Shown here piece by piece: positions 4,585 to 17,388 of a DNA stretch of 20,000 nucleotides. Made by a program: the position numbers and the translations under genes. The notes under the pieces were generated by a model. The model saw only the letters and a program-made list of their open reading frames with translations. It was not told the DNA's origin and did not search any database. Source of the DNA: an uncultured virus (IMG/VR IMGVR_UViG_3300030099_006113). Taxonomy: Duplodnaviria; Heunggongvirae; Uroviricota; Caudoviricetes. The DNA lies in the IMG/VR virus record IMGVR_UViG_3300030099_006113, positions 48,174 to 68,173 of that record; one strand, given 5' to 3'. Each line of letters opens with the position of its first letter. The stretch's first letter is position 1.

Positions 4585-6081
4585 TCAGTTTACCCACAGA
4601 TCTTCTTCTGAAATCCCAATTCCCCATAGATCTGGATCATACTTATCCTGGCTGTCTCTCTCAAGAAGATTATCAGCAATACGCTCCTCAAGCTGCTTGA
4701 AGTAATCTTTTGTACCCACTTCGGGTCCCGATCCCTCATATTCATGTAGAAAGTGACGACTTTCTGTCCAAGCATAAAGAGCGGCATCCGAAAGGTGATT
4801 ATCAAACCTTCTATCTTCTGCTGTTCTTGATTTGTTGTACTGTAGCTTGTCCCACTCTTTTAGCAGGTCCATTCCACTGGCTACTTTGATTACACCGTTC
4901 TTGATGTCTGAGTTCATGAGTTTAATCATGCCCATTTTGTCGGATGACTTTTTGGCTGGCTTAATTGGTAGCCCAGAGCGCTCTTTGAATGTCTCAAGCA
5001 ACATTCTTGATGAACCACCGCCAGTATCCATTACAATGGAAGAGAAATCATAATCGCCCATAAATGCGTGGATTTTTTCTTCAACCTCAGAAGTCAGCAT
5101 CTTGGTTTGCTTGTATTCATCAATGAAGAAAAGGAATGGATGATCTGGTGACCAAGCAGCGACGACAAAGGCGGTAGCATCATGGTAACCGAGGTCGATA
5201 CCGAGGACGAACTCCCAGTCATTACTTTCGGGAGTATCCTCAAGCAAGTTGTCCTCAGAGTACTCGTAGACGATATCTTGGTCGTTTCTTACCCAGAGTC
5301 CCAAGTACTCGCGCTTATAGGAGGAATCAGTTGGGTCAAGAACCCCACTTTTGATGTCAGCCTCTATGGATCTGACAGCGTGCGCCATGTAGGGATTATT
5401 TTTAACTGTCCACCTGTGAACTGAAAAGCTGTATTTATCCTTTTCAGTAATGTCATAAAAAAATCCTGAACAAGAACTATTAGGCGTAGAAATTAAAACC
5501 AGTGCGCCGTCTCTATCAAGCAAAGCAGGAGTTAAAACTTCGTTTACGAGCTCGCGTAAGTTGATGTTAAAAAAAGCAGCTTCATCAAGAACAGCCAAGG
5601 AAAATGCTGCACCGCGTAATTTATCCACGTCACTTGCATCGTTGGCACCAGTAAAAAGAATCTGAGATCCATTAGGAAAGGTAGCTACAAGGTCTGCATT
5701 ATTAAACTTAATACCAATCCTAAATCTTTGGTTAGCCTCCTTAAGGGAAGCCCACAAAATCCTTTTAGCCGCCTCTCTTGTCCTAGCAATGTAGACACAC
5801 ATGGTGCCTTCGTTCTCAAGGGCCTCTTTGATTAAATAACGCCCTGCAGCATAACTCTTTCCACTTCTTCGACTGCATATAGCAGCCTTCCTCTTTGAAG
5901 GGTCGTTAATGAAATCAAGCTGCTCTTTAAACAAGTTACGAGTCATGTTGAGCATTCGGCTATGCTCAGATCTTCGCTGGGCTTTGTTCTTAGAGGGACC
6001 GGTATGGCCAGACCTGGACACAAAAGCCTCATAAAGCTCTCGACTAGTAAGGCTAATCGTTGGCAGCTTGGTCTTAGCCAT
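4585..6081 (-). CDS. terL: Terminase large subunit
   Basis: Walker A 'SRRSGKS', Walker B 'AVLDEA', 'LISTP' coupling motif, RNase H-like nuclease 'GIDLG..D' and 'FDNHLSDA'. ATG at 6081 (MAKTKLP) preferred over the longer track start at 6120. Confidence 0.95.
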   Translation of the reverse strand: MAKTKLPTISLTSRELYEAFVSRSGHTGPSKNKAQRRSEHSRMLNMTRNLFKEQLDFINDPSKRKAAICSRRSGKSYAAGRYLIKEALENEGTMCVYIARTREAAKRILWASLKEANQRFRIGIKFNNADLVATFPNGSQILFTGANDASDVDKLRGAAFSLAVLDEAAFFNINLRELVNEVLTPALLDRDGALVLISTPNSSCSGFFYDITEKDKYSFSVHRWTVKNNPYMAHAVRSIEADIKSGVLDPTDSSYKREYLGLWVRNDQDIVYEYSEDNLLEDTPESNDWEFVLGIDLGYHDATAFVVAAWSPDHPFLFFIDEYKQTKMLTSEVEEKIHAFMGDYDFSSIVMDTGGGSSRMLLETFKERSGLPIKPAKKSSDKMGMIKLMNSDIKNGVIKVASGMDLLKEWDKLQYNKSRTAEDRRFDNHLSDAALYAWTESRHFLHEYEGSGPEVGTKDYFKQLEERIADNLLERDSQDKYDPDLWGIGISEEDLWVN

Positions 6082-6532
6082 AAGCAACTCTTTGCTCTTC
6101 AGGCGAAGACATAAGCTCAAATATAAAAGCAGGAAGAAGACTACTTACAAAACGAGTGTGCCATTTAGACCGAGCATCCATTTTCTGCATATGAAAGGAC
6201 CAATAAGAGCAAAAAACAGGGTTATCTCTATTACGCACTGTGTCAGGGTATACCTCATTGAGCATTTCACTGCCAATACCATTACCTCTGAAGCTTTTTT
6301 TAACAAAAAGAAAGTGCAGTAATTTTGTTTCTTCTATCTGGCCATAGGCAATCCAGCCTAAAATATGGTCAGCATCGTCTCGGTCGCAGTAAATAAGGAC
6401 TTTTTCGTCCTCAATAACTTTATCAATGAGGTGCCTAGTCATAGCAGTTACTGCTTTTGTGGGGCATTTCACAGATCTAATCCACGAATCATAGACAAAA
6501 TCGTGGTCAATGGGTCTGATTCCTCTAATCAT
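6074..6532 (-). CDS. GNAT-family acetyltransferase
   Basis: 152 aa with acetyl-CoA-binding motif A 'FLFVKKSFRGNGIGSEMLNEV'; overlaps both neighbours. Confidence 0.75.
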   Translation of the reverse strand: MIRGIRPIDHDFVYDSWIRSVKCPTKAVTAMTRHLIDKVIEDEKVLIYCDRDDADHILGWIAYGQIEETKLLHFLFVKKSFRGNGIGSEMLNEVYPDTVRNRDNPVFCSYWSFHMQKMDARSKWHTRFVSSLLPAFIFELMSSPEEQRVAYG

Positions 6533-6857
6533 TGCTTGCCTTCCTTTCCCGAAGTGCCTTTTTCACGAGCTTTTCCAGCTCTTCATTCGACATCTTAGCA
6601 ATAGCATCAGACTTTAATTGCGATTCAATCTCTAACAATCGCTTTAAACCCCCGAAACAACTGTCTAATTTCTGCATATCTTTATTATCTAGCTCGCCAT
6701 TATTGTCTACCTTGTCTTTTAAAAGGGATATCTGGCTTTCTGTTATGTGAAATAAATCATCCCAAAGCTTATGCTTGTCTCTTGATTGAACAATCTGAGG
6801 CTTCTGCCCCATTACGCTGTAGGAACCAGTGGCTCTAGTCTTTTTTGTAGCTGTCAT
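6525..6857 (-). CDS. Putative terminase small subunit / first late gene
   Basis: 110 aa helical protein heading the packaging operon; C-terminal 'MSNEELEKLV' resembles the 'LSDEEL' tail common in TerS. Function mostly from position. Confidence 0.45.
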   Translation of the reverse strand: MTATKKTRATGSYSVMGQKPQIVQSRDKHKLWDDLFHITESQISLLKDKVDNNGELDNKDMQKLDSCFGGLKRLLEIESQLKSDAIAKMSNEELEKLVKKALRERKASND

Positions 6858-6939
6858 AAGAAAAGATTAGACGATGATTTGATCTACAGGCAAGTCAAAG
6901 CTAGAATACAAAGACCCCACAGCTACGGAGTAGACGCCA

Positions 6940-7066
6940 GTGACCCAACGGGTCACCCTTTAGGCGGACACGCAACCCTTGTCGCCCTTCTGTCCGTTTC
7001 GTACCTAACGATAAGACATTACCCAGTTGGATATCGGCAAGGGCAACGGGCGTAGCTCACCGTTGC
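6940..7066. other. Structured non-coding segment (hairpins plus possible pseudoknot)
   Basis: GTGACCC/GGGTCAC (6940-6956), CGGACA/TGTCCG (6965-6996), loop CCCTTGTCG (6976-84) complementary to CGGCAAGGG (7035-43), GCAACGG/CCGTTGC (7043-7066). Confidence 0.45.
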
Positions 7067-7479
7067 AGCACAATATAGGTATCCAATCCTACGGGCTTTT
7101 TAGGTCAATCCGAGGGGGGGTGCTTGAGGGATCTCGATAACGCACTGCGATAAACGAAAATTAGGCAAAAATTCGTAGAGGGTATTTAACACTCTATTGA
7201 CTTTGCTCTCTGGGGGGTACCCCCTGACTATATTGCACTGTAACCGGCAGTAGCGGATGTCCACTGTCATTCCTTGGGCCGTCAGACCTCCGCTCATCGC
7301 TCGGCCTGGTCGCTCCGCGAGTGAATTACACCTCACGAAAATAAACAACTTTCCCATGTTTTCCCTGTATTCCTTGGTATTTTAACCTTTCGTACAGATC
7401 AAAACAGTTCGGTTAATTCACAAAAGGTGCCCGGATACGTTCGTCACTTCCCACCCTCCCACCCTACGGCGTGCGTTGC

Positions 7480-8242
7480 CCTCACGATGCCTCCGGCGGC
7501 GCCTACCCGGCGGGGGCAAACGTGCGACGTTTGATCCGACACCCCCGCCCCCTAGAGAACCTGCGACTCTCGAGCAGGACTACCGACGCTCCCGAAGCCA
7601 TTGAGTACAATGTCTCCGACAGCTTACGAGTCCTGCACTCGGCCACACGTTCTCTCCACCGCAAGTCCGAGAACCTTGGCAATGTTCTTCGCGGGATCTG
7701 CATGCCTCATTAGTCGATAGGCCCGCTCAATGGACTAACGACGCCTGAGTACAGGCTTACGAGTCCATGGGCAGCTACCTGCATCTCTCCGGGATACTAT
7801 CAAGCTGAATTACCCGCTAGAATCAGAGCCACTAACGACGCCTCCGGCTTACGAGTGGCCCTAGATTCGCTACCAGCTCAGAACACTCCGGGCAGGCGAG
7901 TACGCCCGCCTTGCCTCGGAATCGGACGTAGGGTTGTGACAGGAAGGTCTAATCCTACACTCCTGTGCTCTATCTATCTCTATCTCTCGAATTAATCGGC
8001 GTGAGTCTACCAGCCGTCGTCGGGCGGTAAAGGACGGGCGAGTACGCCCGCCAGCCTCTGCGAATAGACACAAAAGATACGGAGTACCGTACTTTTGCAT
8101 CGATTCTTGATTCTGGTTAACGAAGGCCCACACGACTGCTTGGCTGAGTACAGCCAATCAGGCGCTTAATCGGGCCTTCTAATCCTTGACCGTCCTCCTC
8201 CGTCTGGGTCTGCAAGGCCTCACTTAATTCAAGAAGAAATCG
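7480..8242. ncRNA. Candidate large structured ncRNA (or folded ssDNA element) with repeated internal-loop motif and AGTA-capped hairpins
   Basis: Near-continuous stems; three copies of ACT-A(A/C)CGAC-GC..GC-TTACG-AGT in different flanking helices; six G-AGTA-C hairpins; no credible ORF. Strand unresolved. Confidence 0.65.
7574..7859. repeat. Three structural repeats of one internal-loop motif
   Basis: 7574-7636 GCAGGACT-ACCGAC-GCT..AGC-TTACG-AGTCCTGC; 7730-7768 ATGGACT-AACGAC-GCCTG-AGTA-CAGGC-TTACG-AGTCCAT; 7828-7859 GCCACT-AACGAC-GCC-TCC-GGC-TTACG-AGTGGC. Confidence 0.85.
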
Positions 8243-8296
8243 TAAAAAACATAAACAAAACTTACGGTTTCGTAACACTCAAAAAAGGAAGACAAC

Positions 8297-8929
8297 ATGT
8301 CATTGACTCAAAAGTTACTAGCTAAGCACGGCGCTAAGATGTCCAACAAAGCACTGTCCGCTGCAACAACTGGCCAGCACAAGCCAGCGCCTCTTGACCA
8401 GTCTCGCCTGTCCATTGCCTTCGAATTCATTGAGGTGGTAGCCACCATCCAGGTGATGTTTGAGCGTCAAATGGCTCCCGCAGGGTCAGGTGAAGCCTGC
8501 AAGGAAGCATGGAAGGAAATCAAGCAGGCTCTTCGCAAGCCTAGCGGTGAACACGGCCGCTTTTGGCGCGAGATACACACAGCCTGCGACGCGCACGGCG
8601 TCGACTGGTTCGCAGACGGCGGCGCTGACGCTAAGCTGGCTGCGGTCCACTCCATCCGGGTATCACGCGGAGACGTTACGGAAGACGGTCGTGAGGCTCC
8701 GACCCCGGACATGGCGGACTTGCCCCAGGATCCCGAGCCGCGATGGATTGACTGTCCGGCACCGGACGTCACCGACGCCGTGCACGAGGACTACGACGAG
8801 GTCCAGGCTAACCGACTCAGCGAGGTCGGGGCGCACTTCGCCGCAGTTGCGGAGGATGTCGCGTCGTACGGACGCATGTGCAACGGGGTCTGGGTGATGG
8901 ATCACCTGGACACCGACCCGCTCCTCTAA
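8297..8929 (+). CDS. GC-rich orphan hypothetical protein, first early gene
   Basis: 210 aa, AAGGAAG RBS before ATG, basic N-terminus, acidic C-terminal half, followed by a terminator; no family recognised. Confidence 0.7.
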   Translation: MSLTQKLLAKHGAKMSNKALSAATTGQHKPAPLDQSRLSIAFEFIEVVATIQVMFERQMAPAGSGEACKEAWKEIKQALRKPSGEHGRFWREIHTACDAHGVDWFADGGADAKLAAVHSIRVSRGDVTEDGREAPTPDMADLPQDPEPRWIDCPAPDVTDAVHEDYDEVQANRLSEVGAHFAAVAEDVASYGRMCNGVWVMDHLDTDPLL

Positions 8930-10355: not shown

Positions 10356-10593
10356 AGAAAGAGACTATATGCTGACATGGCAGCGCAATATGTCTTACGA
10401 AAAAAGCAGGCCACCTGAAGACCCAAAGGAAAAACAAGAAAGAATTGACTACTACAAATCCCGCATCGACAAAACTAAGTGTTGGGTTTGTCGCAAAAAA
10501 CTAAACAGCCAAGAAGCACAAAACACTTACAGGGAGACTCCTTACTGCAAGGAGCATCACCCCAGGACATGGCAGATAAAATGGGAGCAATGA
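10348..10593 (+). CDS. Hypothetical zinc-finger protein
   Basis: 81 aa, GGGAG RBS, CWVC...YCKEHH. Confidence 0.6.
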   Translation: MAKERDYMLTWQRNMSYEKSRPPEDPKEKQERIDYYKSRIDKTKCWVCRKKLNSQEAQNTYRETPYCKEHHPRTWQIKWEQ

Positions 10594-10739
10594 AAAACAT
10601 CTTAATAAAGATGCAGCAAGGAGAGTTACTTACTGTTCACGAGCGAGCGGTAGTAAATCAAGCCTACTTTACACCTTCAAACAGCGATGAGGAAAAGAAT
10701 GATAACTGTGTCGAAGAAAGTACCAGCGAAGCTGACTGA
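10590..10739 (+). CDS. Small hypothetical protein (49 aa)
   Basis: ATGA overlap with previous stop; MKNILIKMQQGELLTVHERA... Confidence 0.4.
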   Translation: MKNILIKMQQGELLTVHERAVVNQAYFTPSNSDEEKNDNCVEESTSEAD

Positions 10740-11058
10740 TTTAACTTTGGAAATAACAGCAGGTGGCATGAAAGATATTGTTGCGGTTCATATCGAACGA
10801 GCAGCAAGAATCATAAGATGTAAAAAAGATGCGATGGCTCAAGTAGATCCATCTAAAATAGAAAGTTATCCGGTCGAAGTATTTAATGCTGTCAAAGATC
10901 TTAAAAACTTTTTCACCGTAATCCTTGATGACGGCCTTTATAAGGCACCCGTCTTTGATGAGGAAGAGCTCTACTTGGCATTTCTGCTTTGTGGACATCT
11001 AGAACGCAGTCAGTTTGACTGGCTGCGCAAATTAGCCGCAGACCAAAACATGAACTGA
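10699..11058 (+). CDS. Hypothetical protein
   Basis: Open frame 10687-11058; GAGGA RBS favours the ATG at 10699. Confidence 0.6.
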   Translation: MITVSKKVPAKLTDLTLEITAGGMKDIVAVHIERAARIIRCKKDAMAQVDPSKIESYPVEVFNAVKDLKNFFTVILDDGLYKAPVFDEEELYLAFLLCGHLERSQFDWLRKLAADQNMN

Positions 11059-11071
11059 AGCGAGGAAAGAA

Positions 11072-11890
11072 ATGAGTAAGAAGGTACAAGAAATTGTAAC
11101 GAGCAAGATTATTGAGGCTCTTGAAGCGGGAGTGGCTCCATGGAGAAAGACATGGAAAACGGCAAGATCCAAGAACCTGATTAGCGGTCGTCCATATTCA
11201 GGTGCCAATGCCCTGCTTACTCATCCGATGGTTACAGGATTCAAGGAGCCATCCTTTGTAACCAAGAATCAAATCAAACAAATGGGCATGAAGGTTAAAG
11301 AGGGTGAGAGATACATTCCTATTATTTTTTATGGAACTGGTAAAAACAAAGAGACGGAAAAATCATTCCGTTTTCAAAGATTTTATCCTGTTTATAACGT
11401 TGAACAAATTGAAGGATTTGAGATCTCAGAACAGAAAGAAAACAGAGAAGAATGCATCAACAAGAATGCTGAAGAAATAATTGCAGAATGGGCAGGTAAA
11501 CTACCAATTAGGTATGGCAATCATAACCCATGCTACTCTCCAATGGTTGATACAATCTTTATGCCTGAAATAAAATCCTTTGAATCAGATGCTGAGTATT
11601 ACAGCACAATATTCCATGAGTTATCTCATGCGACTGGTCATGGATCTAGGCTTAACCGCGAAAGCGTTGCCTCACTAAAGAGGGACTCTCACAAGTATTC
11701 TGAAGAGGAACTTGTAGCAGAGTTAGGTAGTGCATTCCTCTGCCATTACACAGGCGTTGAAGGCGTATTCGACAACCAAGCGAGCTACTGTCAGAACTGG
11801 CTTTATGCCCTTAAGAATGACCGTAGCATTATCCTGCGAGCCGCAAGGCAAGCAGATAAATCTTTTAAACTAATAATTGGAGAATCTTAA
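11072..11890 (+). CDS. ardC: ArdC-like antirestriction protein (ssDNA-binding domain plus zincin-like metallopeptidase domain)
   Basis: 'IIEALEAGVAPWRKTW', 'NLISGRPYSGANALL', HExxH 'FHELSHATGH..RLNR', 'YSEEELVAELGSAFL', 'ASYCQNWL'. Confidence 0.92.
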   Translation: MSKKVQEIVTSKIIEALEAGVAPWRKTWKTARSKNLISGRPYSGANALLTHPMVTGFKEPSFVTKNQIKQMGMKVKEGERYIPIIFYGTGKNKETEKSFRFQRFYPVYNVEQIEGFEISEQKENREECINKNAEEIIAEWAGKLPIRYGNHNPCYSPMVDTIFMPEIKSFESDAEYYSTIFHELSHATGHGSRLNRESVASLKRDSHKYSEEELVAELGSAFLCHYTGVEGVFDNQASYCQNWLYALKNDRSIILRAARQADKSFKLIIGES

Positions 11891-11891
11891 A

Positions 11892-12161
11892 ATGGAAATT
11901 TCAACATGTCGTGTATGTGATGATGTTCTTGTCAAAGAAGACTACGAATGGATTGGGACATATACAACAATATGCAGAAACTGTTGGCATAAACCAGTAC
12001 TTGAAATGGAGCAGCAAATTAAACACTTAAAGCTACGCCTTTCTGAGGCAAGAAAAGACTTAAAAGAAGCAGAGAAAGAAAAAAGAAATGAGCGCAAAAA
12101 AGCAAGGAAAAAGCCAGTCCACAAGGACAAACAAAAGCAACCAATCTTACAGCGGGTTTGA
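11892..12161 (+). CDS. Hypothetical zinc-ribbon plus coiled-coil protein
   Basis: GGAGA RBS then ATG 11892; CRVC...CRNC, basic coiled-coil tail. Confidence 0.6.
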   Translation: MEISTCRVCDDVLVKEDYEWIGTYTTICRNCWHKPVLEMEQQIKHLKLRLSEARKDLKEAEKEKRNERKKARKKPVHKDKQKQPILQRV

Positions 12162-12448
12162 TGGATTCAGATGGGCTGAGCCATCACCAGAGGAGTTTTA
12201 CCATGTCGGTCCAGGACCTCTACACATTTCTCCGGAACTATCAGAGCGCCCTAGCCTTGCTGGTGGGATCACAGCAGGAGAACAAGTTCACAAAGAACAT
12301 AGACGAGGTGTGCAAAGTGTTAAGCGCATTGATGGTTCTTTACGGAAAACACACAAGCACAATGGAAGTGATAGACAAGCTTCATGACGATGCTCATGAG
12401 TTGTATTGTTCTAACTCTCAAGAACTTGATTACAGGGAAAGCACATGA
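12158..12448 (+). CDS. Hypothetical protein
   Basis: 96 aa, 4-nt overlaps with both neighbours; real start may be the ATG at 12203 after GAGGAG. Confidence 0.55.
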   Translation: MMDSDGLSHHQRSFTMSVQDLYTFLRNYQSALALLVGSQQENKFTKNIDEVCKVLSALMVLYGKHTSTMEVIDKLHDDAHELYCSNSQELDYREST

Positions 12449-13191
12449 GTAGATTTGAAATTAATTTACCAGATGAAAAGCTCCGCATAAAGCCACCTAG
12501 GTCAATCTATTACGGGCCACCCAAGATTGGTAAGTCTACATTTGCCAGCAAGTTTCCATCTCCCATTTTTATTCAAGCAGAAGATGGTGTGTCTGGCCTA
12601 AATGTTTCCAAGATACCAAGGACTCCTTTGGTTTCGTGGGATGAGCTCATGAAATGCTGTGATCAAGTACTTAAATCACCCCATGAAATGAAAACCTTGG
12701 TTGTAGATACTATCGACCGAGTTGAGCACTTATCTCGCCAGTGGGTTCTTAAGCATACATATTCAAATAACAAAAAAGACTTTATGGCTTACTTCAAAGG
12801 ACCAGTTGAAGCAGGTCAGAAGATATCCGAGCTACTCGCTTGTCTTGATCAGATCAGAGATGAGCGAGGAATGAATATCATTGTTCTTAGTCATGAAGGT
12901 CTGCACAAAGGGGCTGATGAGCTTGGCGAAGAGTTCAAGAAAACGGCCCCATCTGTTTCTCGCTATGCATGGGAGCAGCTACACAACTGGGCAGATCAAA
13001 TAGGCCACATCACGAATGACTTCAGAGTTGTTCAAGGTAAGGCACGTCAGGCCAACAAAGGCAGACACATTGTATTTTCGGGTCACCCAGGCAAAGAGGC
13101 CGGTACTCGAGCTGGCTATGAAATGCCAAAAGAAATCAAACTAAACTTTGAGGAATATCTCAAACACACAAAGGAGTACCTTGCATGCTAG
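12445..13191 (+). CDS. AAA_24 / Sak4-like phage ATPase (recombination)
   Basis: Walker A 'YGPPKIGKST', 'FIQAEDG', Walker B 'TLVVDTID', 'IIVLSH'; followed by an SSB-like gene as is usual for Sak4. Confidence 0.85.
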   Translation: MSRFEINLPDEKLRIKPPRSIYYGPPKIGKSTFASKFPSPIFIQAEDGVSGLNVSKIPRTPLVSWDELMKCCDQVLKSPHEMKTLVVDTIDRVEHLSRQWVLKHTYSNNKKDFMAYFKGPVEAGQKISELLACLDQIRDERGMNIIVLSHEGLHKGADELGEEFKKTAPSVSRYAWEQLHNWADQIGHITNDFRVVQGKARQANKGRHIVFSGHPGKEAGTRAGYEMPKEIKLNFEEYLKHTKEYLAC

Positions 13192-13673
13192 TACAACCAC
13201 CAGAAGGTATGTCAAAAGCAAAACAAATGAACACCCGTTTTCAGCCTGGAGTTTACCTTTACGAGGTACAGCAGGCAGATCTTGAGTGGGATATTAACGG
13301 TGATAACACTTGGCATGAAGACAGCACTATTGAGGACAGCTCAATGAAAGAAGGTGCTCGTCGCCGAGTTGTTCTTACTATCTCCCTTTCTAATCCAGAT
13401 AATACTGAACCATTCACAAATAAGGTTTGGTGTTATTTTGAATCTCATAACCGATGGAAGCATGATTCTTTATGCTCCTCGCAGGGCAAAGACCCTGATG
13501 AGCCAATGCAGTACAAGGATGAATTTGGGGACATTGTTCTTGAGCATGGCCTTGTAAGCATGAAGAAAGATGGATCTTATCTTGACGTTCAACGATTTAT
13601 CAAGAAAGACCAGGAAGCTATTGATGCAATGGTAGAGTCAATCGAGGAAGCTAGACAAACAATCCCATTCTGA
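13185..13673 (+). CDS. Putative single-stranded DNA-binding protein
   Basis: 162 aa, acidic, 'PGVYLYEV' N-terminal strand, ends 'IPF', immediately after the Sak4-like gene; AAGGAG RBS. Confidence 0.6.
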   Translation: MLVQPPEGMSKAKQMNTRFQPGVYLYEVQQADLEWDINGDNTWHEDSTIEDSSMKEGARRRVVLTISLSNPDNTEPFTNKVWCYFESHNRWKHDSLCSSQGKDPDEPMQYKDEFGDIVLEHGLVSMKKDGSYLDVQRFIKKDQEAIDAMVESIEEARQTIPF

Positions 13674-13681
13674 GGTGAGCA

Positions 13682-14122
13682 ATGGTAAGAATCACAAAGT
13701 CTCAAATTGATAAGCTAAGAAAAGGCGTGCAGATGATCATTGATATTCTTGATGAGCTAGATGCTATGCCTGCAAAGAATCGCTTTCGACAAGATGCTTT
13801 TGAGGTTCTTTCCTACTATCAAAAAGTTCACCCCAGGAAGGGCCGTAACGTTGTTGCTGGTCACCCATCATTCAAGCTCATCATTGCAAGACTAAAAGAC
13901 GGGTTCTCTGTCTCGGAATTGAACAAAGCAATTGATGGCAACTTGAAAGATGAGTGGCACAGCAGCAACCCTGGCGGCCATGGTCTTACCTACGTATTTA
14001 GAAACCAAGAAAAAGTAGAACGATTCATTGAAGTAGCGGGTGGTAAAACACCAAACAAAAAAGGAAACCATGCAGGCAGCAAGGAGTTTAAGCATGGCAA
14101 GCAAAGACTTGACTTCGATTAG
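13682..14122 (+). CDS. Putative replication initiator (conserved phage C-terminal-type domain)
   Basis: 'IIARLKDGFSVSELNKAID...W...LTYVFR...ERF' pattern; directly upstream of a DnaC-like ATPase; GAGGTG RBS. Confidence 0.65.
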   Translation: MVRITKSQIDKLRKGVQMIIDILDELDAMPAKNRFRQDAFEVLSYYQKVHPRKGRNVVAGHPSFKLIIARLKDGFSVSELNKAIDGNLKDEWHSSNPGGHGLTYVFRNQEKVERFIEVAGGKTPNKKGNHAGSKEFKHGKQRLDFD

Positions 14123-14807
14123 TGAGCAAGTGATGAGCGCCTATGAGCGTCTCAAGAACGATGGAAGAATTGAGATTGTAGATGAATCAAAGTTTGAAAT
14201 GGATCTTGAAAGTGTTTCTAAGTTTGACTTGCTTTCATCTCAGGGTTTACCAAAAAGACTTTTGAAGAATCTTCATTCATCTTTTCAGTCTACCTATGCA
14301 ACTAAAAGTGTTGATGAGTTTCATGGATCTGATGATAACGCCTGGTGTCTTGTTTTGTCTGGAGACAAAGGTTGCGGCAAAAGCACCGCAGCAGCTTATT
14401 GGCTGTACAGCATCCTAACCTACCCTCGAACAGAGTATGACAAAAGAAGAGTCACCACCAAGACTCGCCGATGGTACTCCTCTTCTCGTATACAAAGAAT
14501 CTCTGATTACAAAGAGAATGGATCTGAGCTCGAGAAATTGTTTGTTGTCCCTCATCTGGTTATTGATGATCTTGGAGTGGAGTACCTTGATGCCAAAGGA
14601 TACACCCAGAAGAGATTTGATGAGATCCTTGATGAGCGATACAGCAACTTTCGCAAGACCCTAATTACCACTAACCTGAATGCAAGAGACTTCAGGGATA
14701 GATATGGAACCCGGATCTTTGATAGAATCAGGGAGGGACTTTCAAGCGGGGGAGCATTTGTCGAAATCGGAGAAAAATCTTACAGGGCAGAAAAGAATGG
14801 TAAGTGA
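14094..14807 (+). CDS. DnaC/IstB-like helicase loader ATPase
   Basis: Walker A 'GDKGCGKS', Walker B 'LVIDDLGVE', 'ILDERY', 'TLITTNL', 'YGTRIFDRI'; AAGGAG RBS favours ATG 14094. Confidence 0.88.
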   Translation: MASKDLTSISEQVMSAYERLKNDGRIEIVDESKFEMDLESVSKFDLLSSQGLPKRLLKNLHSSFQSTYATKSVDEFHGSDDNAWCLVLSGDKGCGKSTAAAYWLYSILTYPRTEYDKRRVTTKTRRWYSSSRIQRISDYKENGSELEKLFVVPHLVIDDLGVEYLDAKGYTQKRFDEILDERYSNFRKTLITTNLNARDFRDRYGTRIFDRIREGLSSGGAFVEIGEKSYRAEKNGK

Positions 14808-14897
14808 GTTTAGACTGCCTGGAGATAAAACGTGGATGAAGGCCATATCCAAATGGCCAATGAGCAGGGAAGAACAGGAAGCGAGGCTAAGGAGAAC

Positions 14898-15293
14898 ATG
14901 GGGAAGCTCAGTAGAAATAAGGGTGCCAGGTTCGAAAGATTCGTTGCCAACAAACTCAAAAGAGTCTTCGGGGAAAACACCACAAGAAGCTCAGGCCAGT
15001 GCTTTAGTGGGGACACAAGGGCCGATGTCGACTGCCCAGAAATCTGGGTCGAGTGCAAAGTTGGCAAAAGGCCAAACATCAAAGCAGCGCTTGAACAAGC
15101 AGAAGAAGCTGCCGGAAGTTCCGGGTCAGAGAAAACTGCTGTAGCAATATGCAAATGGGATAGAGGGGAACCAATAGCCTCAATGAGATTGGATGATTTT
15201 ATAGATATACTTTGTCGTGCTTACTTGGGGGGAAACAATGGAAGCATGGGAACTAGCATATGTGAACAAGAGGATGTCAATTCCAGTAGCTAA
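14898..15293 (+). CDS. Hjc-like Holliday junction resolvase (PD-(D/E)XK nuclease)
   Basis: 'SRNKGARFER', 'ADV', 'WVECK'; AAGGAG RBS before ATG 14898. Confidence 0.8.
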   Translation: MGKLSRNKGARFERFVANKLKRVFGENTTRSSGQCFSGDTRADVDCPEIWVECKVGKRPNIKAALEQAEEAAGSSGSEKTAVAICKWDRGEPIASMRLDDFIDILCRAYLGGNNGSMGTSICEQEDVNSSS

Positions 15294-15546
15294 AGAAAAG
15301 CATTCTGGATGTAGCTCAATAACAATTACCCAGTTTGGGAAAACAAAAGAAGAAGCTGAAGATAGATATATATCCACTGTAGACGAAACAAAGAGACTGT
15401 CTGAACCTTGTTATGAAAAAATAAGTAAAGGCTACTCTGTAAAGTGGAAAGAAAAAGCGTGTTTAGAACCAAAAACAACTTGGACATGGAAAAAATCAAG
15501 CAGAAGATATGAGCTATCTAAAAACAAAAACAAGCATGAGGAATAA
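15238..15546 (+). CDS. Hypothetical protein
   Basis: Open frame 15217-15546; G-rich RBS before ATG 15238. Confidence 0.5.
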   Translation: MEAWELAYVNKRMSIPVAKEKHSGCSSITITQFGKTKEEAEDRYISTVDETKRLSEPCYEKISKGYSVKWKEKACLEPKTTWTWKKSSRRYELSKNKNKHEE

Positions 15547-15549
15547 AAA

Positions 15550-16044
15550 ATGGAACAAGAAGAACAACAGGTACATCAATTACCACCAAGAAAGCCTAGT
15601 TACTCAGAGATTGCAATCATGTGGTGGTTCCACCCAATCAACGCTATTGTTTATCTTATTATTTTTACCACGGGCATTCTTACTACTGGGGCGTTTAGCT
15701 ATGCCGTTGGTCTTGAGAGGGATGCACTTCGTAATATCCTTGGTGAAGATCTGGCTATCTCACATAAAGAAGTTCTTTACAGGGGATTTGGTTATAGGAT
15801 TGTTAGGGAAAGAGACACGCCAGGGCAAATCTATAGCCCAGGTGAAGTGCTCGTCAATCTCGAATCTAGAGAGTCAGTTAAAAGAGTTCGAGAAGATGAA
15901 AGGTTTGACCGTTCGGCACGAGTTGGGGCAGTTAAAGCTGAGGCCGAACGCTACTCCGCTAGAGACAGATACACAGAAAGATATGTCAATCATCTTAGCG
16001 ACGAGGACGCTGAGACGCTCTCTGAAATAGGTTTAATTGATTAA
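15550..16044 (+). CDS. Hypothetical membrane-anchored protein
   Basis: 164 aa, GAGGA RBS, hydrophobic segment 'INAIVYLIIFTTGILTTGAFSYAVGL'. Confidence 0.65.
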   Translation: MEQEEQQVHQLPPRKPSYSEIAIMWWFHPINAIVYLIIFTTGILTTGAFSYAVGLERDALRNILGEDLAISHKEVLYRGFGYRIVRERDTPGQIYSPGEVLVNLESRESVKRVREDERFDRSARVGAVKAEAERYSARDRYTERYVNHLSDEDAETLSEIGLID

Positions 16045-16051
16045 ATAAATT

Positions 16052-16240
16052 GTCCGGGCAAGTCTTTCCAGGTTCATGCCCCGGCTGCGGTTCCAAGTCA
16101 GGATTAAATGTTTATGGGCCCCGGGAGCCTGCTTAACCAGCCGCACTCACGATTTAACGAGGGGTGGACCTTTCCTTACCCGCCCCTTGTAGGTCTCGTC
16201 AGGCAATTTTTTGTCATGTTGTTTTTTGCCTGGCGAGGCC
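16052..16240 (+). ncRNA. Candidate four-hairpin small RNA / structured 3' region between convergent operons
   Basis: Stems 16054-16084, 16086-16145, 16157-16190, 16192-16240; wobble pairs are G-T on the plus strand. Confidence 0.45.
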
Positions 16241-16294
16241 GCTTAAACTAAAGCACACATGTAAATTCCACATATGAAATACAAGCCAACCATT

Positions 16295-16678
16295 TTATGT
16301 TCCAAAGATTAAAACATCACAGTCAACAGCAGCACTATTCGCAACAAGAGCAAGATTGTTTGCCACTGTGAAGTCTGTGATAATTAAAAATCCTCCAGCA
16401 TGAACTCTTATCACATTGTCATTCGTGCTGTTTCCTGCACTTCTGAATGTTGCTGTAACGTAATTTGTTGAGTCATTGTTTTTAACGACGACTGCTGTTG
16501 CCGAGGAAAGATGGCTTGTCGTTACTGTAGTTCCTCCAGTATTTGCCTGCACTTCCATGTGCATAAACTCATCTGGTGTTACTGCATATTCTGCTGGATT
16601 AAATGAGACCTTTGGTGACTTGTAAGTAGAAAAGGTAGAGTAGGTGCCTTCTAGCTCTAGCTTTGCGTAGTCTGCCAT
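16295..16678 (-). CDS. Hypothetical (probably virion structural) protein
   Basis: 127 aa, AGGAG RBS, beta-rich T/N/V composition, last gene of the late operon. Confidence 0.6.
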   Translation of the reverse strand: MADYAKLELEGTYSTFSTYKSPKVSFNPAEYAVTPDEFMHMEVQANTGGTTVTTSHLSSATAVVVKNNDSTNYVTATFRSAGNSTNDNVIRVHAGGFLIITDFTVANNLALVANSAAVDCDVLIFGT

Positions 16679-17388
16679 TTATTATCTCCTAGTATCCCAT
16701 CTTCTTGCTGGTTTTCTTTTTTGGCATTGTTTTCTTCTTTGCCTTTTTCTTTACCTTCTTCATTGGCTTGCTCTTCATCGCCTTCATAGAACCATTTTTC
16801 ATCATGACAGTAATTCCTTAATGTGTTTGAAAAGTATACTTCTTCGCATGCTTCAAAGTCTGGTGGACCTTGTACTTTGGTTAGACTTTGTTCAGTCCAG
16901 AGAATTCTGTTGTTAGGCATTGAGCAGTATTGGCCATTCTCTAGGGCTAGTATGTTTTGGCTCTTGTGCTCTTTAGGTATAGATGCGCATGTTGGCATTA
17001 GCTCTCCGTTGGCATCACATTGATCTACAGTGCAAATGTATGTACCGCCAACTAGCTCGTTCCCAATCCTTACCTTTGCGTCAAGGTGCCTAAGAGCGTC
17101 TTTAACAATCGTAGTAATAAACCAGGTATCAATATCCCAAAGAGCAAGATCAGACTGCTCAAACCTAAAATCGCCTTCTCTGTCGTGGACAAAGGCCTCA
17201 ATGGGTAGCTTGTCATAAAGAGCGCCATTCTCGAGTAAAGTCTCAAACAAAAGAGCTCGATGTTTCTGGGCCTTAACGCTTACCCAGTAACCCTTCATGA
17301 ATTCTCCATGGCCTTTCTTTCCATTGTAAAGGAATTCCTTCCTTACAAAGACAGGCTCAAGGGGTAAGTTTGCTACTAAAAAACTCAC
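16657..17388 (-). CDS. Conserved phage hypothetical protein
   Basis: 243 aa, GTGA overlap with upstream gene; 'VRKEFLY...WVSVK...FETLLENGALYDKLPIEAF', 'EHKS...LENGQ...PNNRILW' resemble a family seen in aquatic phages. Confidence 0.7.
   Translation of the reverse strand: MSFLVANLPLEPVFVRKEFLYNGKKGHGEFMKGYWVSVKAQKHRALLFETLLENGALYDKLPIEAFVHDREGDFRFEQSDLALWDIDTWFITTIVKDALRHLDAKVRIGNELVGGTYICTVDQCDANGELMPTCASIPKEHKSQNILALENGQYCSMPNNRILWTEQSLTKVQGPPDFEACEEVYFSNTLRNYCHDEKWFYEGDEEQANEEGKEKGKEENNAKKENQQEDGILGDNKWQTTQS
16689..16763 (-). CDS. Possible lysine-rich peptide (24 aa) nested in the tail of 16657-17388
   Basis: MKKVKKKAKKKTMPKKKTSKKMGY*, stop abuts the RBS of the next gene. Confidence 0.3.
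   Translation of the reverse strand: MKKVKKKAKKKTMPKKKTSKKMGY

Follow-up and report, generated by a model that had tools for sequence, protein, structure and literature searches.

The late operon of an uncultured, podovirus-like marine phage, about 23 kb of packaging and structural genes on the minus strand, is separated from a divergent early operon on the plus strand by a 1.4-kb gap without genes. A reading made earlier from the sequence alone had found in this gap three hairpins that share a near-invariant internal loop. The locus raises the question of whether these hairpins stand by themselves, on which strand they fold and what a structure of this kind could do for the phage. The analysis covered a stretch of 20,000 nucleotides (the window) of a 68,173-bp viral record; the record also contains a second phage.

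The three hairpins lay at the positions reported for them, 7574-7636, 7730-7768 and 7828-7859, and had the reported letters. The pattern ACTAMCGACN{5,35}CTTACGAGT matched three times in the window, compared with a mean of 0.00 and a maximum of 0 in 200 shuffles, and a script scan of the 68,173-bp record gave no copy of the module beyond these three. A covariance model of the module, built from 14 distinct copies, gave the three the scores listed in Table 1 when run on the minus strand; the plus-strand scores were just 9.8, 5.6 and 5.2 bits. The minus-sense sequence of the module is 5'-ACU CGUAA G...Y GUCGKU AGU-3'. From the outside in, it consists of an outer helix that ends in ACU/AGU, a bulge of 2 nt (KU), a CG/CG mini-helix of 2 bp, an internal loop of 3x2 (UAA/GU) and an inner helix of free sequence, topped by an equally free apical part; the minimum-energy fold of copy 2 contains the outer helix, the bulge, the mini-helix, the 3x2 loop and the inner helix.

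The description of the loop as almost invariant was borne out by all 14 distinct copies, which carried the same loop letters apart from a G/U alternation; ACUCGUAAG and GUCG(G/U)UAGU were common to all of them (five sequences), and the letters CGUAA and GUCGNU were constant in 16 copies from two phage lineages, with covarying helices around them. The apical part varied, as had also been claimed, between a triloop (GGA, GCA or CUU), a G-UACU-C hairpin, a 36-nt extended hairpin and a whole nested module. The statement that the outer stems differ and still pair was correct for copy 3, which differs by two compensated pairs, but copies 1 and 2 share GGACU/AGUCC. Over the 14 copies 94.4% of 160 cells were paired, 7 of the 12 pairs were changed on both sides, a count reached by 1 of 500 shuffles, and the covariation score was 0.417 versus 0.146 in shuffles (0 of 500 reached 0.417). 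The apical helices of copy 1 had compensatory changes in the related sequences L150, L151, L148 and X9.

Rather than forming a free-standing trio, the hairpins are peripheral arms of a larger fold, a conserved single-stranded structure of about 680 nt on the minus strand with three domains, each of which has its own long-range closing helix (Table 1). The modules of the window are interspersed in this scaffold at a spacing of 97-156 nt and their stems differ. The consensus fold comprises 186 pairs, and 98.1% of its 734 cells are paired. Both sides had changed in 11 of the 186 pairs; shuffling yielded 5.4 +/- 1.5 such pairs and did not reach 11 in any of 500 trials, and 0-3 were left when the partners were slid as a control. 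Candidate pseudoknots lie around 7924-7965. Most pairs never vary because the full-length sequences number only four (the window, L150, L151 and L154). Taken over element and module, compensatory base changes exceeded shuffled and slid controls, and the occurrence of such changes within and between genomes supports the earlier view that selection has acted on a folded single strand rather than on a double-stranded DNA site.

The motif had been written on the plus strand, but the strand that folds is the minus strand. The alifold energy was -210.7 kcal/mol in the minus sense versus -144.5 kcal/mol in the plus sense, and the fold z-scores were -6.3 and -4.1, respectively. G-U pairs outnumbered A-C pairs by 32 to 2 in the minus sense, compared with 10 to 10 in the best structure of the plus sense itself. 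Since G-T pairs also form in single-stranded DNA, the strand test alone cannot separate RNA from DNA.

Table 1. Coordinates of the conserved element, its parts and its surroundings in the window
Feature	Position	Strand	Remarks
Whole conserved structured element, 682 nt	7551..8232	minus (RNA sense)	boundaries from alignments with L150, L151, L154, L148 and L146
Domain 1	7989..8230	minus	closed by long-range helices, 8182-8230 with 7989-8035; helices 1-3; 3 pairs changed on both sides
Domain 2, contains copies 2 and 3	7658..7934	minus	closed by 7873-7934 with 7658-7695; helices 9, 10 and 12; 2 pairs changed on both sides
Domain 3, contains copy 1	7554..7655	minus	closed by 7628-7655 with 7554-7583; helices 20-21
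Module copy 1	7574..7636	minus	GCAGGACU-CGUAA-GCU[36-nt extended hairpin, G-UACU-C tip]AGC-GUCGGU-AGUCCUGC; 45.5 bits
Module copy 2	7730..7768	minus	AUGGACU-CGUAA-GCCUG-UACU-CAGGC-GUCGUU-AGUCCAU; 59.3 bits
Module copy 3	7827..7860	minus	GCCACU-CGUAA-GCC-GGA-GGC-GUCGUU-AGUGGC; 46.7 bits
G-UACU-C hairpin, tip of copy 1	7599..7612	minus	CAUUG/CAAUG becomes CAUGG/CCAUG in L150
G-UACU-C hairpin, tip of copy 2	7743..7756	minus	loop is UACC in the X9 contig, CUU in L151, GCA in L154
G-UACU-C hairpin	7891..7910	minus	within a 25-nt insert that L150 and L146 lack
G-UACU-C hairpin	8033..8052	minus	8037 G>A and 8048 C>T in the X9 contig, pair kept
G-UACU-C hairpin	8077..8092	minus	caps the long helix 8062-8106
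Lineage-specific hairpin insert	8122..8179	minus	G-UACU-C tip and degraded module-like loop (GAUUAA / G)
Variable G+C-rich spacer, unconserved	7358..7550		half-copy 7484-7497 and strong hairpin 7509-7549 (hairpin lacking in the X9 contig)
Second conserved structured element	6900..7190	not assigned	immediately ahead of the first late gene
First late gene	start 6857	minus	second conserved element just upstream

Two further sites had been suggested as degenerate relatives of the module, and neither is supported as a copy. The one at 7484-7497 is a partial match of 3.5 bits outside the conserved element, and in the one at 8122-8179 just the apical hairpin scores (1.7 bits), with GUCGUG and GAUUAAG kept by eye. 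The latter site is a lineage-specific insert absent from L150 and L154, and L151 has two nested true modules there. The G-UACU-C tips also occur outside the modules (Table 1). Six of the nine AGTA-loop hairpins of the 68-kb record fall in 7599-8157, all on the same strand, and GAGTAC was observed 16 times in the window versus 4.96 expected. The shared tips may present a second repeated contact surface. Pairing of the tip with the loop (UAC of the tip with GUA of CGUAA) was considered and dropped, the tips of a distant relative, G001, being without UAC.

The element was 593-903 nt long among the full-length sequences, and fragments of it also occur in marine metagenomes. The number of modules was three in the window, three in L150, seven in L151 and five in L154, with one copy nested in the apical stem of another, and copies 1-3 held fixed, conserved positions in all relatives. 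The DNA of the element was 84.5% identical to L150 over 588 nt and 95% identical to L148 over 151 nt. In the same contigs, the proteins were 69% (TerL), 69% (portal), 58% (MCP), 53% (GNAT) and 63% (orf110) identical; overall, neighbouring proteins were about 54-71% identical, as opposed to 84-95% for the DNA of the element, and the DNA directly outside it could not be aligned with the relatives. Its insertions and deletions comprise whole hairpins (25 nt, 59 nt and more), so a coding frame does not fit. Three open reading frames, at 7471-7713 on the plus strand and at 7503-7703 and 7870-8157 on the minus strand, were rejected as genes, their frames being broken by hairpin-sized indels and, in X9, by indels of 1-2 nt; they have matches in relatives because the DNA is conserved. 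These comparisons point to selection acting on the nucleic acid itself.

Contigs from X9, X10, X11 and X13 proved on comparison to be sequence variants of the element, and the variants known so far number about six, all from marine samples. Sequence of the element was listed for 20 runs in 11 studies, none of them recorded as RNA. In the collection searched for cultured relatives ('phages'), neither the gap nor the window as a whole was matched at the DNA level, and the best TerL match among cultured phages was 26-27% identical (Vibrio phages). The contigs L124-L136, with TerL 59-71% identical, showed no blastn similarity, no module in a relaxed structural scan and no repeated loop, with the exception of L134, which was picked up afterwards with the covariance model. 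A loose pattern scan matched at least 119 stretches, and among those listed only L061 and L074 had two matches at a spacing like that of the window. The single matches among those listed were judged from their flanks to be chance. Single pattern matches elsewhere were judged likewise; they lie in L149, which looks coding, in L152, L155-L159 (metagenome) and in three MAG sequences, L160-L162, of Actinomycetota, Dehalococcoidia and Anaerolineales. These scored 17.9-29.8 bits, as is expected because the pattern had selected them, the outer stem was missing in most, and the best, L157, lay inside an ORF of 346 aa. An 18-mer from the scaffold core retrieved eight stretches in IMG/VR, four already known and four chance matches without the module.

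The distant phage G001 (TerL 59% identical) bears two modules in which the loop is unchanged and the closing pairs differ (ACC/GGU and GCU/AG-C), set in a scaffold without other similarity to the element of the window. Their tips carry another 4-nt palindrome, UGCA, and their orientation is flipped, along the early genes and opposite to that in the window, though the gene order is the same. All copies lay inside the element, with none in the rest of G001 or in G004, and a degenerate 25-mer of the G001 module matched G001 alone. In the sister lineage L166, the same place is occupied by eight copies of a different mini-hairpin, YCCCGCG(N1-4)AGCGU, which suggests that arrays of small folded modules are a common habit of this region.

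The reading that we favor, at a probability of roughly 45%, is that the three-domain fold of the minus strand is transcribed as RNA, with the arms as multivalent docking sites for a putative partner, most likely a protein. The transcript would be a stand-alone non-coding RNA or a long leader. Each arm would dock the same sequence-specific partner, probably a phage or host protein, and the RNA could work as a ribonucleoprotein scaffold or sponge whose capacity is set by the number of arms (3, 3, 5, 7), a variation that fits multivalent binding. The sequence-only reading had suggested a multivalent module for binding a protein or ligand or for catalysis, such as a decoy; no observation pointed to catalysis or to a small ligand. 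No candidate binding protein was singled out when the ORFs were compared with those of G001, G004, G005, the second phage in the record and four TerL loci; the gene adjoining the element differs among relatives, and G005 is without the entire early region. Several points count against this reading: the G001 modules have the opposite orientation, no promoter-like site was found (see below), and the 3' end of the element has no intrinsic terminator. The sequence 5' of the element (right of 8232) is unconserved, and a plus-strand early gene begins about 10-25 nt from the element in L150, L151, L154 and X9, so plus-strand transcripts probably run through at least part of it. Conservation of the whole element and not of the arms alone, unlike the usual sponge RNA, favors a precise three-dimensional machine.

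This last consideration leads to the possibility, which we consider unlikely, that the element is an ornate RNA whose own tertiary or quaternary structure does the work, in the manner of GOLLD, ROOL and OLE. In that case the invariant loop would serve for tertiary contacts, as a receptor or bend, and the GUAC-containing tips would make loop-loop contacts within or between molecules. Several observations are consistent with this idea: 1) the element has 593-903 nt in three closed domains and is conserved over its full length, 2) each RNA would have 4-8 identical tips, every one with a self-complementary GUAC, 3) both G001 modules have a different palindrome at the tip, and 4) palindromes are switched among OLE and GOLLD homologues, GOLLD and ROOL being borne by phages or prophages (PMC12286853, in excerpt). 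However, the variable number of arms and their nesting are hard to square with the fixed geometry of a cage, and some copies have CUU, GCA, GGA or GGUA in place of the tip. In addition, the G of GUAC is the closing pair of the 4-nt loop, so that kissing requires the pair to open, GNRA loops are absent, and the palindrome argument is post hoc and drawn from two lineages.

It is less probable still that the modules belong to a leader that acts in cis on the polymerase or on its own transcript, by processive antitermination of the put/nut type or by protecting or processing the operon mRNA. They are located upstream of, and co-oriented with, a long operon with no terminator between (the late operon of about 23 kb in the window, the early operon in G001). 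Nevertheless, the two lineages would differ in the operon served, late in the window and early in G001, the conserved scaffold of 600-900 nt far exceeds the put and nut sites, and the element is separated from the first late gene by an unconserved spacer of about 190 nt and by the second conserved element. Nor was a promoter found in front of the element: a consensus scan of 7000-8600 gave no promoter-like site on either strand, and inspection of both strands by eye at the two ends of the element revealed nothing convincing.

A function at the level of DNA, in which the hairpins form in single-stranded or extruded DNA for replication, packaging (pac/cos) or site-specific recombination, appears decidedly improbable. 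In its favor, the element is flanked by divergent operons, with the terminase genes 1.3 kb downstream; 8 of the 12 IMG/VR contigs with the second conserved element end at most 1 kb upstream of it, and L146, L147 and L148 end inside the element under study. The strand test is compatible with DNA as well, G-T being the most tolerated DNA mismatch. The long-range helices that close domains of 230-370 nt, with compensatory changes, nevertheless suit a free single strand of 680 nt and not a transient bubble. The contig ends are scattered (window positions 7993, 7731 and others) and five contigs pass straight through (G000, L150, L151, L154 and X9), which argues for assembly breaks at repeats or variable DNA and not for a physical end. 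Furthermore, the flipped orientation in G001 with the same gene order would be odd for a directional pac site, and no integrase, HUH or Y1 enzyme was present among the ORFs scanned. Least credible of all is the spread through the gap of selfish small palindromic repeats (REP- or MITE-like) without function for the phage, for although the copy number varies between close relatives, one copy lies inside another and hairpin inserts come and go, no copy occurs beyond the element, be it in the 68-kb record, in G001 or in G004, copies 1-3 occupy fixed positions in all relatives, and the invariant loop with drifting stems is the reverse of the decay of dead repeats.

Apart from rRNA, introns and RNase P, very few structured RNAs of large size have, to our knowledge, been described in bacteria and phages. 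GOLLD and ROOL were recently shown to form RNA-only cages. A phage RNA of 600-900 nt whose pairs show compensatory changes and whose three-domain core carries a module that is multiplied and portable would extend this short list. We entertain, with considerable doubt, the bolder proposal that the element represents a new phage-borne class of ornate RNA, in which plug-in arms (the 11-nt loop module and the GUAC tip) are mounted on a three-domain core and the RNA self-assembles or titrates a putative host RNA-binding or defence protein. If that were so, the number of arms would evolve quickly, as in an arms race, and the module, given that its loop recurs in the unrelated scaffold of G001, would count as a portable RNA building block that has a dedicated partner. 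The element is short enough for transcription in vitro, and the module (CGUAA/GUCGNU with fixed flanks) offers a defined 11-nt target for finding the partner. The different mini-hairpin arrays of sister phages suggest that RNA-based control or counter-defence is general in the early-late gap of this marine group, as a layer that has gone unstudied.

The element belongs to no RNA family in the Rfam library, in line with the sequence-only reading, which had not recognised the module as a known riboswitch, ribozyme, K-turn or tetraloop receptor. Rfam 15 gave no match in the whole window at the gathering threshold, and with E up to 10 the regions 7300-8350 and 6800-7600 gave just PhotoRC-I at 17.2 bits (threshold 45), MIR168 at 13 (66) and snoZ169 at 20.2 (55). 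In these scans, neither the GOLLD, ROOL and OLE models nor put matched.

Several known structures were set aside on closer comparison. A K-turn consists of a 3-nt bulge followed by tandem sheared G-A/A-G pairs, and CGUAA / GUCGKU has no GA/AG tandem beside either helix. A type III toxin-antitoxin RNA (ToxI-like) has identical repeats arranged head to tail beside an endoribonuclease toxin gene; it was rejected, the modules being interspersed with differing stems and no such toxin gene being found among the ORFs scanned (Pfam, PHROGs). Mobile hairpins of the REP/REPIN type, which are dispersed in many copies over intergenic regions, were rejected as well, all copies lying within one element and no RAYT-type transposase being found among the scanned ORFs. 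Hairpin promoters like those of N4 were rejected because the record is without a giant virion RNA polymerase (largest ORF, 1248 aa). Presumed resemblances of the loop to the decoding-site CGU/UCG step, the tRNA-Thr anticodon loop, the UAA/GAN motif and T7 RNase III sites were given no weight.

The 11-nt GAAA tetraloop receptor (CCUAAG/UAUGG) is similar in size and outline, in its 5'-C-N-U-A-A-G strand and in its closing G-Y pair, and the U-A-A present in all copies of the module could form a platform-like stack, as the A4-A5 dinucleotide does in the receptor. However, the core pair C2-G10 is G-C in the module and A8 (of U3-A8, the UA-handle) is G, in all 14 copies, on which grounds the receptor was rejected; substitutions in its core abolish binding without rescue (PMC10243134, in excerpt). 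The module further differs in that the G-U step is mostly G-C (11 of 14 copies), in its extra 2-nt bulge, and in that no GNRA hairpin, and hence no GNRA partner, is found in the element of the window; one GAAA-loop candidate with a stem of at least 4 pairs was listed in L151.

The put site of HK022 is an RNA of two stem-loops that makes RNA polymerase terminator-resistant in cis; put and the nut sites of lambda each occur singly, span roughly 15-70 nt and follow a promoter directly. They share with the element small folded modules with conserved unpaired letters in a phage control region between divergent operons, within the leader (a presumed one for the element) of a long operon, but the element has 3-7 modules on a scaffold of 600-900 nt, the promoter scan was empty and the orientation to the operons differs by lineage. 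Sponge RNAs of the CsrB/RsmZ type capture one protein multivalently through many copies of GGA in apical loops, the number of copies differing among relatives. The element resembles them in its multiple short motifs on hairpins and in their variable number. It is unlike them in that it is phage-encoded, that its motif is an asymmetric internal loop of 11 nt flanked by fixed pairs, and that strong conservation and a high degree of structure extend to the scaffold linking the motifs.

The remaining comparison is with GOLLD, ROOL and OLE, all of which have Rfam models and of which OLE and GOLLD are described with symmetric kissing loops that swap palindromes among homologues (PMC12286853, in excerpt). 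Unlike these three, the element is built round a multiplied internal-loop module that is not known from them, and unlike GOLLD and ROOL it has no tRNA genes nearby (none in the 20-kb window) and is situated between divergent early and late operons. Like these RNAs, it extends over hundreds of nucleotides with many hairpin arms on multi-helix junctions, and a variable periphery with repeated loops able to make loop-loop contacts surrounds a conserved core; like GOLLD and ROOL, it is borne by phages (PMC12286853).

Direct inspection of the window confirmed, letter for letter, the three hairpins in which the sequence-only reading had noticed a shared asymmetric internal loop (copies 1 to 3 in the table). 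The two loop strands and three closing pairs, used as a pattern, matched three times in the window and never in 200 dinucleotide-preserving shuffles, and when the full 68,173-bp record was scanned by script a fourth copy was not found. The hairpins sit in a 939-nt stretch without credible genes, which has a G+C content of 55-57% vs approximately 42% in the surroundings. To its left, the minus strand carries small ORFs and the genes for a GNAT acetyltransferase, the terminase large subunit (TerL), the portal and the major capsid protein (MCP), and to its right plus-strand genes include those for ArdC-like, Sak4-like, O-like and DnaC-like proteins. There were no tRNA genes in the window. Near the starts of the genes on either side of the gap are direct repeats that could act as promoters or as translation signals in this phage. 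The GNAT gene, an unusual member of a packaging module, lies between a small late ORF and the TerL gene and is kept at the same place in all relatives (29-53% identical).

The sequence-only reading had not recognized the hairpins as a known riboswitch, ribozyme, K-turn or tetraloop receptor, and Rfam 15 gave no matches to the window at gathering thresholds and, at permissive E-values, only three weak ones that were judged to be chance. Similar DNA was not found in a collection of cultured phages, in which the closest terminase was 26-27% identical; the source is an uncultured marine lineage. Pattern scans detected the element to which the hairpins belong in the IMG/VR contigs L146, L147 (near-identical to one another), L148 and L150 and in two metagenome contigs, L151 and L154, and contigs of one marine run, X9, had a variant of it. 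The sequencing runs found in a search for it were all DNA runs. Isolated matches to the pattern in other sequences, three MAGs among them, were set aside as probable chance. Because the scans gave few members and an 18-mer from the scaffold gave no additional one, the family appears to be rare among the sequences searched, with approximately six sequence variants.

Conservation of the element begins sharply at 7551 (7539 in the L150 and L146 alignments) and stops at 8232, beyond which the DNA was not alignable between relatives. The element is 682 nt long in the window and 593, 691 and 903 nt in the full-length relatives L150, L154 and L151, respectively, and these differences consist of whole hairpins; L150 is without the hairpins 7887-7915 and 8122-8180, and extra hairpins are present in L151 and L154. 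The DNA identity of the element was 84.5% to L150 and 95% to L148, whereas the proteins of the same contigs were far more diverged (TerL 69%, portal 69%, MCP 58%, GNAT 53% and orf110 63% identical), showing that, as judged by sequence identity, the element is far more strongly constrained than the genes next to it. Immediately 3' of the element in the minus sense is a strong G+C hairpin, GGCGGGGG...CCCCCGCC, without a U tail, and the X9 variant is without the stretch 7486-7542.

Features of the window (window coordinates unless another contig is named) and of the distant phage contig G001
Feature	Coordinates	Strand	Description
Copy 1	7574-7636	minus	arm of the main element
Copy 2	7730-7768	minus	arm of the main element
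Copy 3	7828-7859	minus	arm of the main element
Domain 1	8182-8230 pairs with 7989-8035	minus	long-range closing helix, consensus fold
Domain 2	7873-7934 pairs with 7658-7695	minus	long-range closing helix, consensus fold; copies 2 and 3
Domain 3	7628-7655 pairs with 7554-7583	minus	long-range closing helix, consensus fold; filled by copy 1
Possible H-type pseudoknot	7924-7965	minus	candidate
Strong G+C hairpin	7509-7549		immediately 3' of the element in the minus sense
Gene-free stretch	7358-8296		939 nt
Direct repeats	7388-7407 and 8268-8287 (also 7331-7348 and 8241-8258)		TTTCGTA(N)CA..TCAAAA.AG and ATAAACAA
Second element	~6900-7190		conserved, covarying, non-coding
GNAT acetyltransferase gene	6074-6532	minus	
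Mini-hairpin array	~1530-2150 (L166)	reverse	upstream of the second element
G001 module 1			GUGAGCU-CGUAA-...-GUCGAU-AG(u)CUCAC; 16.1 bits
G001 module 2			UGGGACC-CGUAA-...-GUCGCU-GGUCCCA; 20.4 bits
Two sets of three repeats	1566-1703 and 2756-2909 (L179, G001)		

The motif had been written in the plus sense, an assignment that the G-U and A-C counts and the consensus energy reversed. At several positions, a single change between relatives results in a G-U pair if the minus strand is read but in an A-C mismatch if the plus strand is read; examples are CAUUG/CGAUG in L148 and X9, GGUUGG/CCGACC in L151, and the first pair of the inner helix, both in copy 1 of L150 and in the extra copy of L148. 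In the consensus fold of the four full-length sequences, the minus sense had G-U in at least one sequence at 32 of 186 pairs and A-C at two, and the plus sense, in its own best consensus structure, had 10 of each. There is a bias in that the prediction of the structure was made on the very strand favoured by it; the prediction nevertheless tolerated 14 pair-breaking cells, of which only two were A-C. The consensus energy was -210.7 kcal/mol (minus) vs -144.5 kcal/mol (plus), and the single-sequence z-scores were -6.3 and -4.1, respectively. On the basis of these predictions, the folding strand can be taken as settled to be the minus strand.

The consensus fold revealed that the hairpins are arms of a three-domain element, with standard pairs in 98.1% of 734 pair cells. 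Both-side changes were found at 11 pairs vs 5.4 +/- 1.5 in shuffles (none of 500 reached 11) and fell to 0-3 when the partners were slid by 1-3 columns. In the X9 contig, 8037 G>A is accompanied by 8048 C>T, which makes one further compensated pair. Covariation support for the whole predicted fold is good but not deep, because most pairs never vary among the four sequences. The modelling nevertheless establishes a strand-specific, conserved, three-domain fold as the predicted structure of the element. The possible pseudoknot would interleave ACAGGAG...CUUCCUGU with GUAGG...CCUAC; in the consensus fold the same stretch forms two small covarying hairpins (helices 7 and 8) instead.

Each arm reads, on the minus strand, 5'-(outer helix)ACU-CG-UAA-G(inner helix, free apical part)Y-GU-CG-KU-AGU(outer helix)-3', and its thermodynamic fold has an outer helix, a 2-nt bulge, a CG/CG mini-helix, a 3x2 loop and an inner helix. 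The alignment of this module comprised 14 distinct copies, leaving out duplicates and the 91-nt outer copy of a nested pair in L151, and all 14 had ACUCGUAAG and GUCG(G/U)UAGU in common. Both-side changes occurred at 7 of 12 pairs and 94.4% of the 160 cells pair; the covariation claimed from the three copies was upheld, with a score of 0.417 vs 0.146 in shuffles (0 of 500 reached 0.417). There are three modules in the window and in L150, five in L154 and seven in L151, where one is nested in the apical stem of another. The apical part is free and takes the form of a triloop, a G-UACU-C hairpin, a long hairpin or an entire module, so it is the internal loop, together with the pairs next to it, that is the determinant. 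With a covariance model, only the minus strand gave matches for the three window copies, at 45-59 bits, and the two stretches that had been suggested as degenerate relatives were not accepted. Six hairpins with different stems share one loop, G-AGTA-C on the plus strand and G-UACU-C on the minus strand. Nine such hairpins with at least four perfect pairs occur in the whole record, six of them within 7599-8157, all on one strand, and GAGTAC was observed 16 times in the window vs 4.96 expected.

The module model also matched a stretch (L134) of G001, a 38.7-kb contig whose terminase is 59% identical to that of the window. The loop letters CGUAA and GUCGNU are retained in its two modules, and the loop-adjacent closing pair is changed with compensation from U-A to C-G. 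In the remainder of the 1.6-kb gene-free, G+C-rich gap of G001, nhmmer detected no similarity to the window element. The gene order matches that of the window: the late genes occupy one strand and the early genes, ArdC among them, the other. The modules, however, run in the direction of the early genes, opposite to what is seen in the window. Since the same loop occurs in a dissimilar gap and in reversed orientation, the module is a portable unit with an orientation not tied to one operon. In L179, another stretch of G001, a 46-nt unit is repeated three times in tandem; every unit has a perfect 8-bp G+C hairpin and, after it, a T-rich tail, and so resembles a plus-strand terminator. L179 also has three 38-nt repeats, CGTAAGTGCGCGTCTAG..ACGGAACTGGAAAACTTC, just upstream of early genes.

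Approximately 190 nt of unconserved spacer separates the main element from the second element, located downstream of it on the minus strand, which stops immediately ahead of the ribosome-binding site belonging to the first conserved late gene (start 6857). An 8-sequence alignment, including an unrelated chance match (L176), gave 60 consensus pairs with both-side changes in 14, and no Rfam match was found for the second element. The overlapping ORF 7100-7357, for which no protein-level relative was found, is probably spurious. An 18-mer of the second element occurred in 12 IMG/VR stretches, 11 of them relatives, and several of these contigs are without modules. In L166, their place is taken by a mini-hairpin, YCCCGCG(N1-4)AGCGU, present in eight copies of the same sense; its 3-bp stem is CGC/GCG, its closing G..A and its loop variable. 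L171 has two G-UACU-C hairpins. Of the 12 stretches, 8 run into a contig end no more than 1 kb upstream of the second element. The main element itself contains the ends of three contigs; because these ends differ in place and five sequences read through, the contig ends in the gap are probably assembly breaks at repeats or strain-variable DNA, not a genome terminus. Two assemblies, L146 and L147, share their end point, at window 7993.

The full record contains two full packaging/structural gene sets (e.g. 10380-17291 and 47169-54293 of the record) that are mutually 35-47% identical, with two each of TerL, portal, SU10-type adaptor, AAA_24 and S74 fibre tip, and near-identical genes (88-96%) are common to regions near both of its ends. 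From its gene content, it looks like two related phage genomes of approximately 34 kb joined in one record; no such element was found in the first.

The element represents a real and new family, probably of large structured phage RNA and less likely of single-stranded DNA, that carries a new portable internal-loop module and has a narrow known distribution. Several observations suggest, with a probability of roughly 0.45, that the arms of a structured RNA are multivalent docking sites, 1) approximately 10 unpaired or mini-helix letters are strictly invariant in 16 copies from two lineages, 2) the apical parts are free, 3) arms are added, lost and nested between close relatives and 4) a sister lineage has a different mini-hairpin array at the same place. 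Each arm would dock the same sequence-specific partner, most likely a protein, and the docked RNA would act as a scaffold or sponge. A simple sponge is disfavoured, in that both the conservation of the scaffold along its whole length and, by analogy, an ornateness equal to that of the GOLLD and ROOL phage RNAs count against it.

The same two features speak for an RNA-only architecture, as in the ornate phage RNAs, as do the palindromes in the hairpin tips, GUAC in the window element and UGCA in G001; this alternative is nonetheless rather unlikely. GOLLD and ROOL RNAs assemble without protein via kissing loops and A-minor contacts, and symmetric kissing loops switch between palindromes in RNAs of this type (PMC12286853). 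In the relatives an early gene begins approximately 10-25 nt from the 5' border of the element. A scan of 7000-8600 on both strands found no promoter-like signal, nor does a terminator-like signal mark the element. A cis-acting leader of the put/nut kind is doubtful. A role at the level of the DNA is improbable. Selfish repeats are a very improbable explanation of the arms.

The module is like the 11-nt GAAA receptor in its outline, C-N-U-A-A-G opposite a 5-nt strand, but neither core step agrees with that of the receptor and a GNRA partner is absent. Because substitutions at those core steps of the receptor abolish binding without rescue (PMC10243134), the module was rejected as such a receptor, and it was rejected as a K-turn because it has no tandem G-A pairs. 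The known systems closest to the element are the ornate phage RNAs in kind and the multivalent sponge RNAs in logic.
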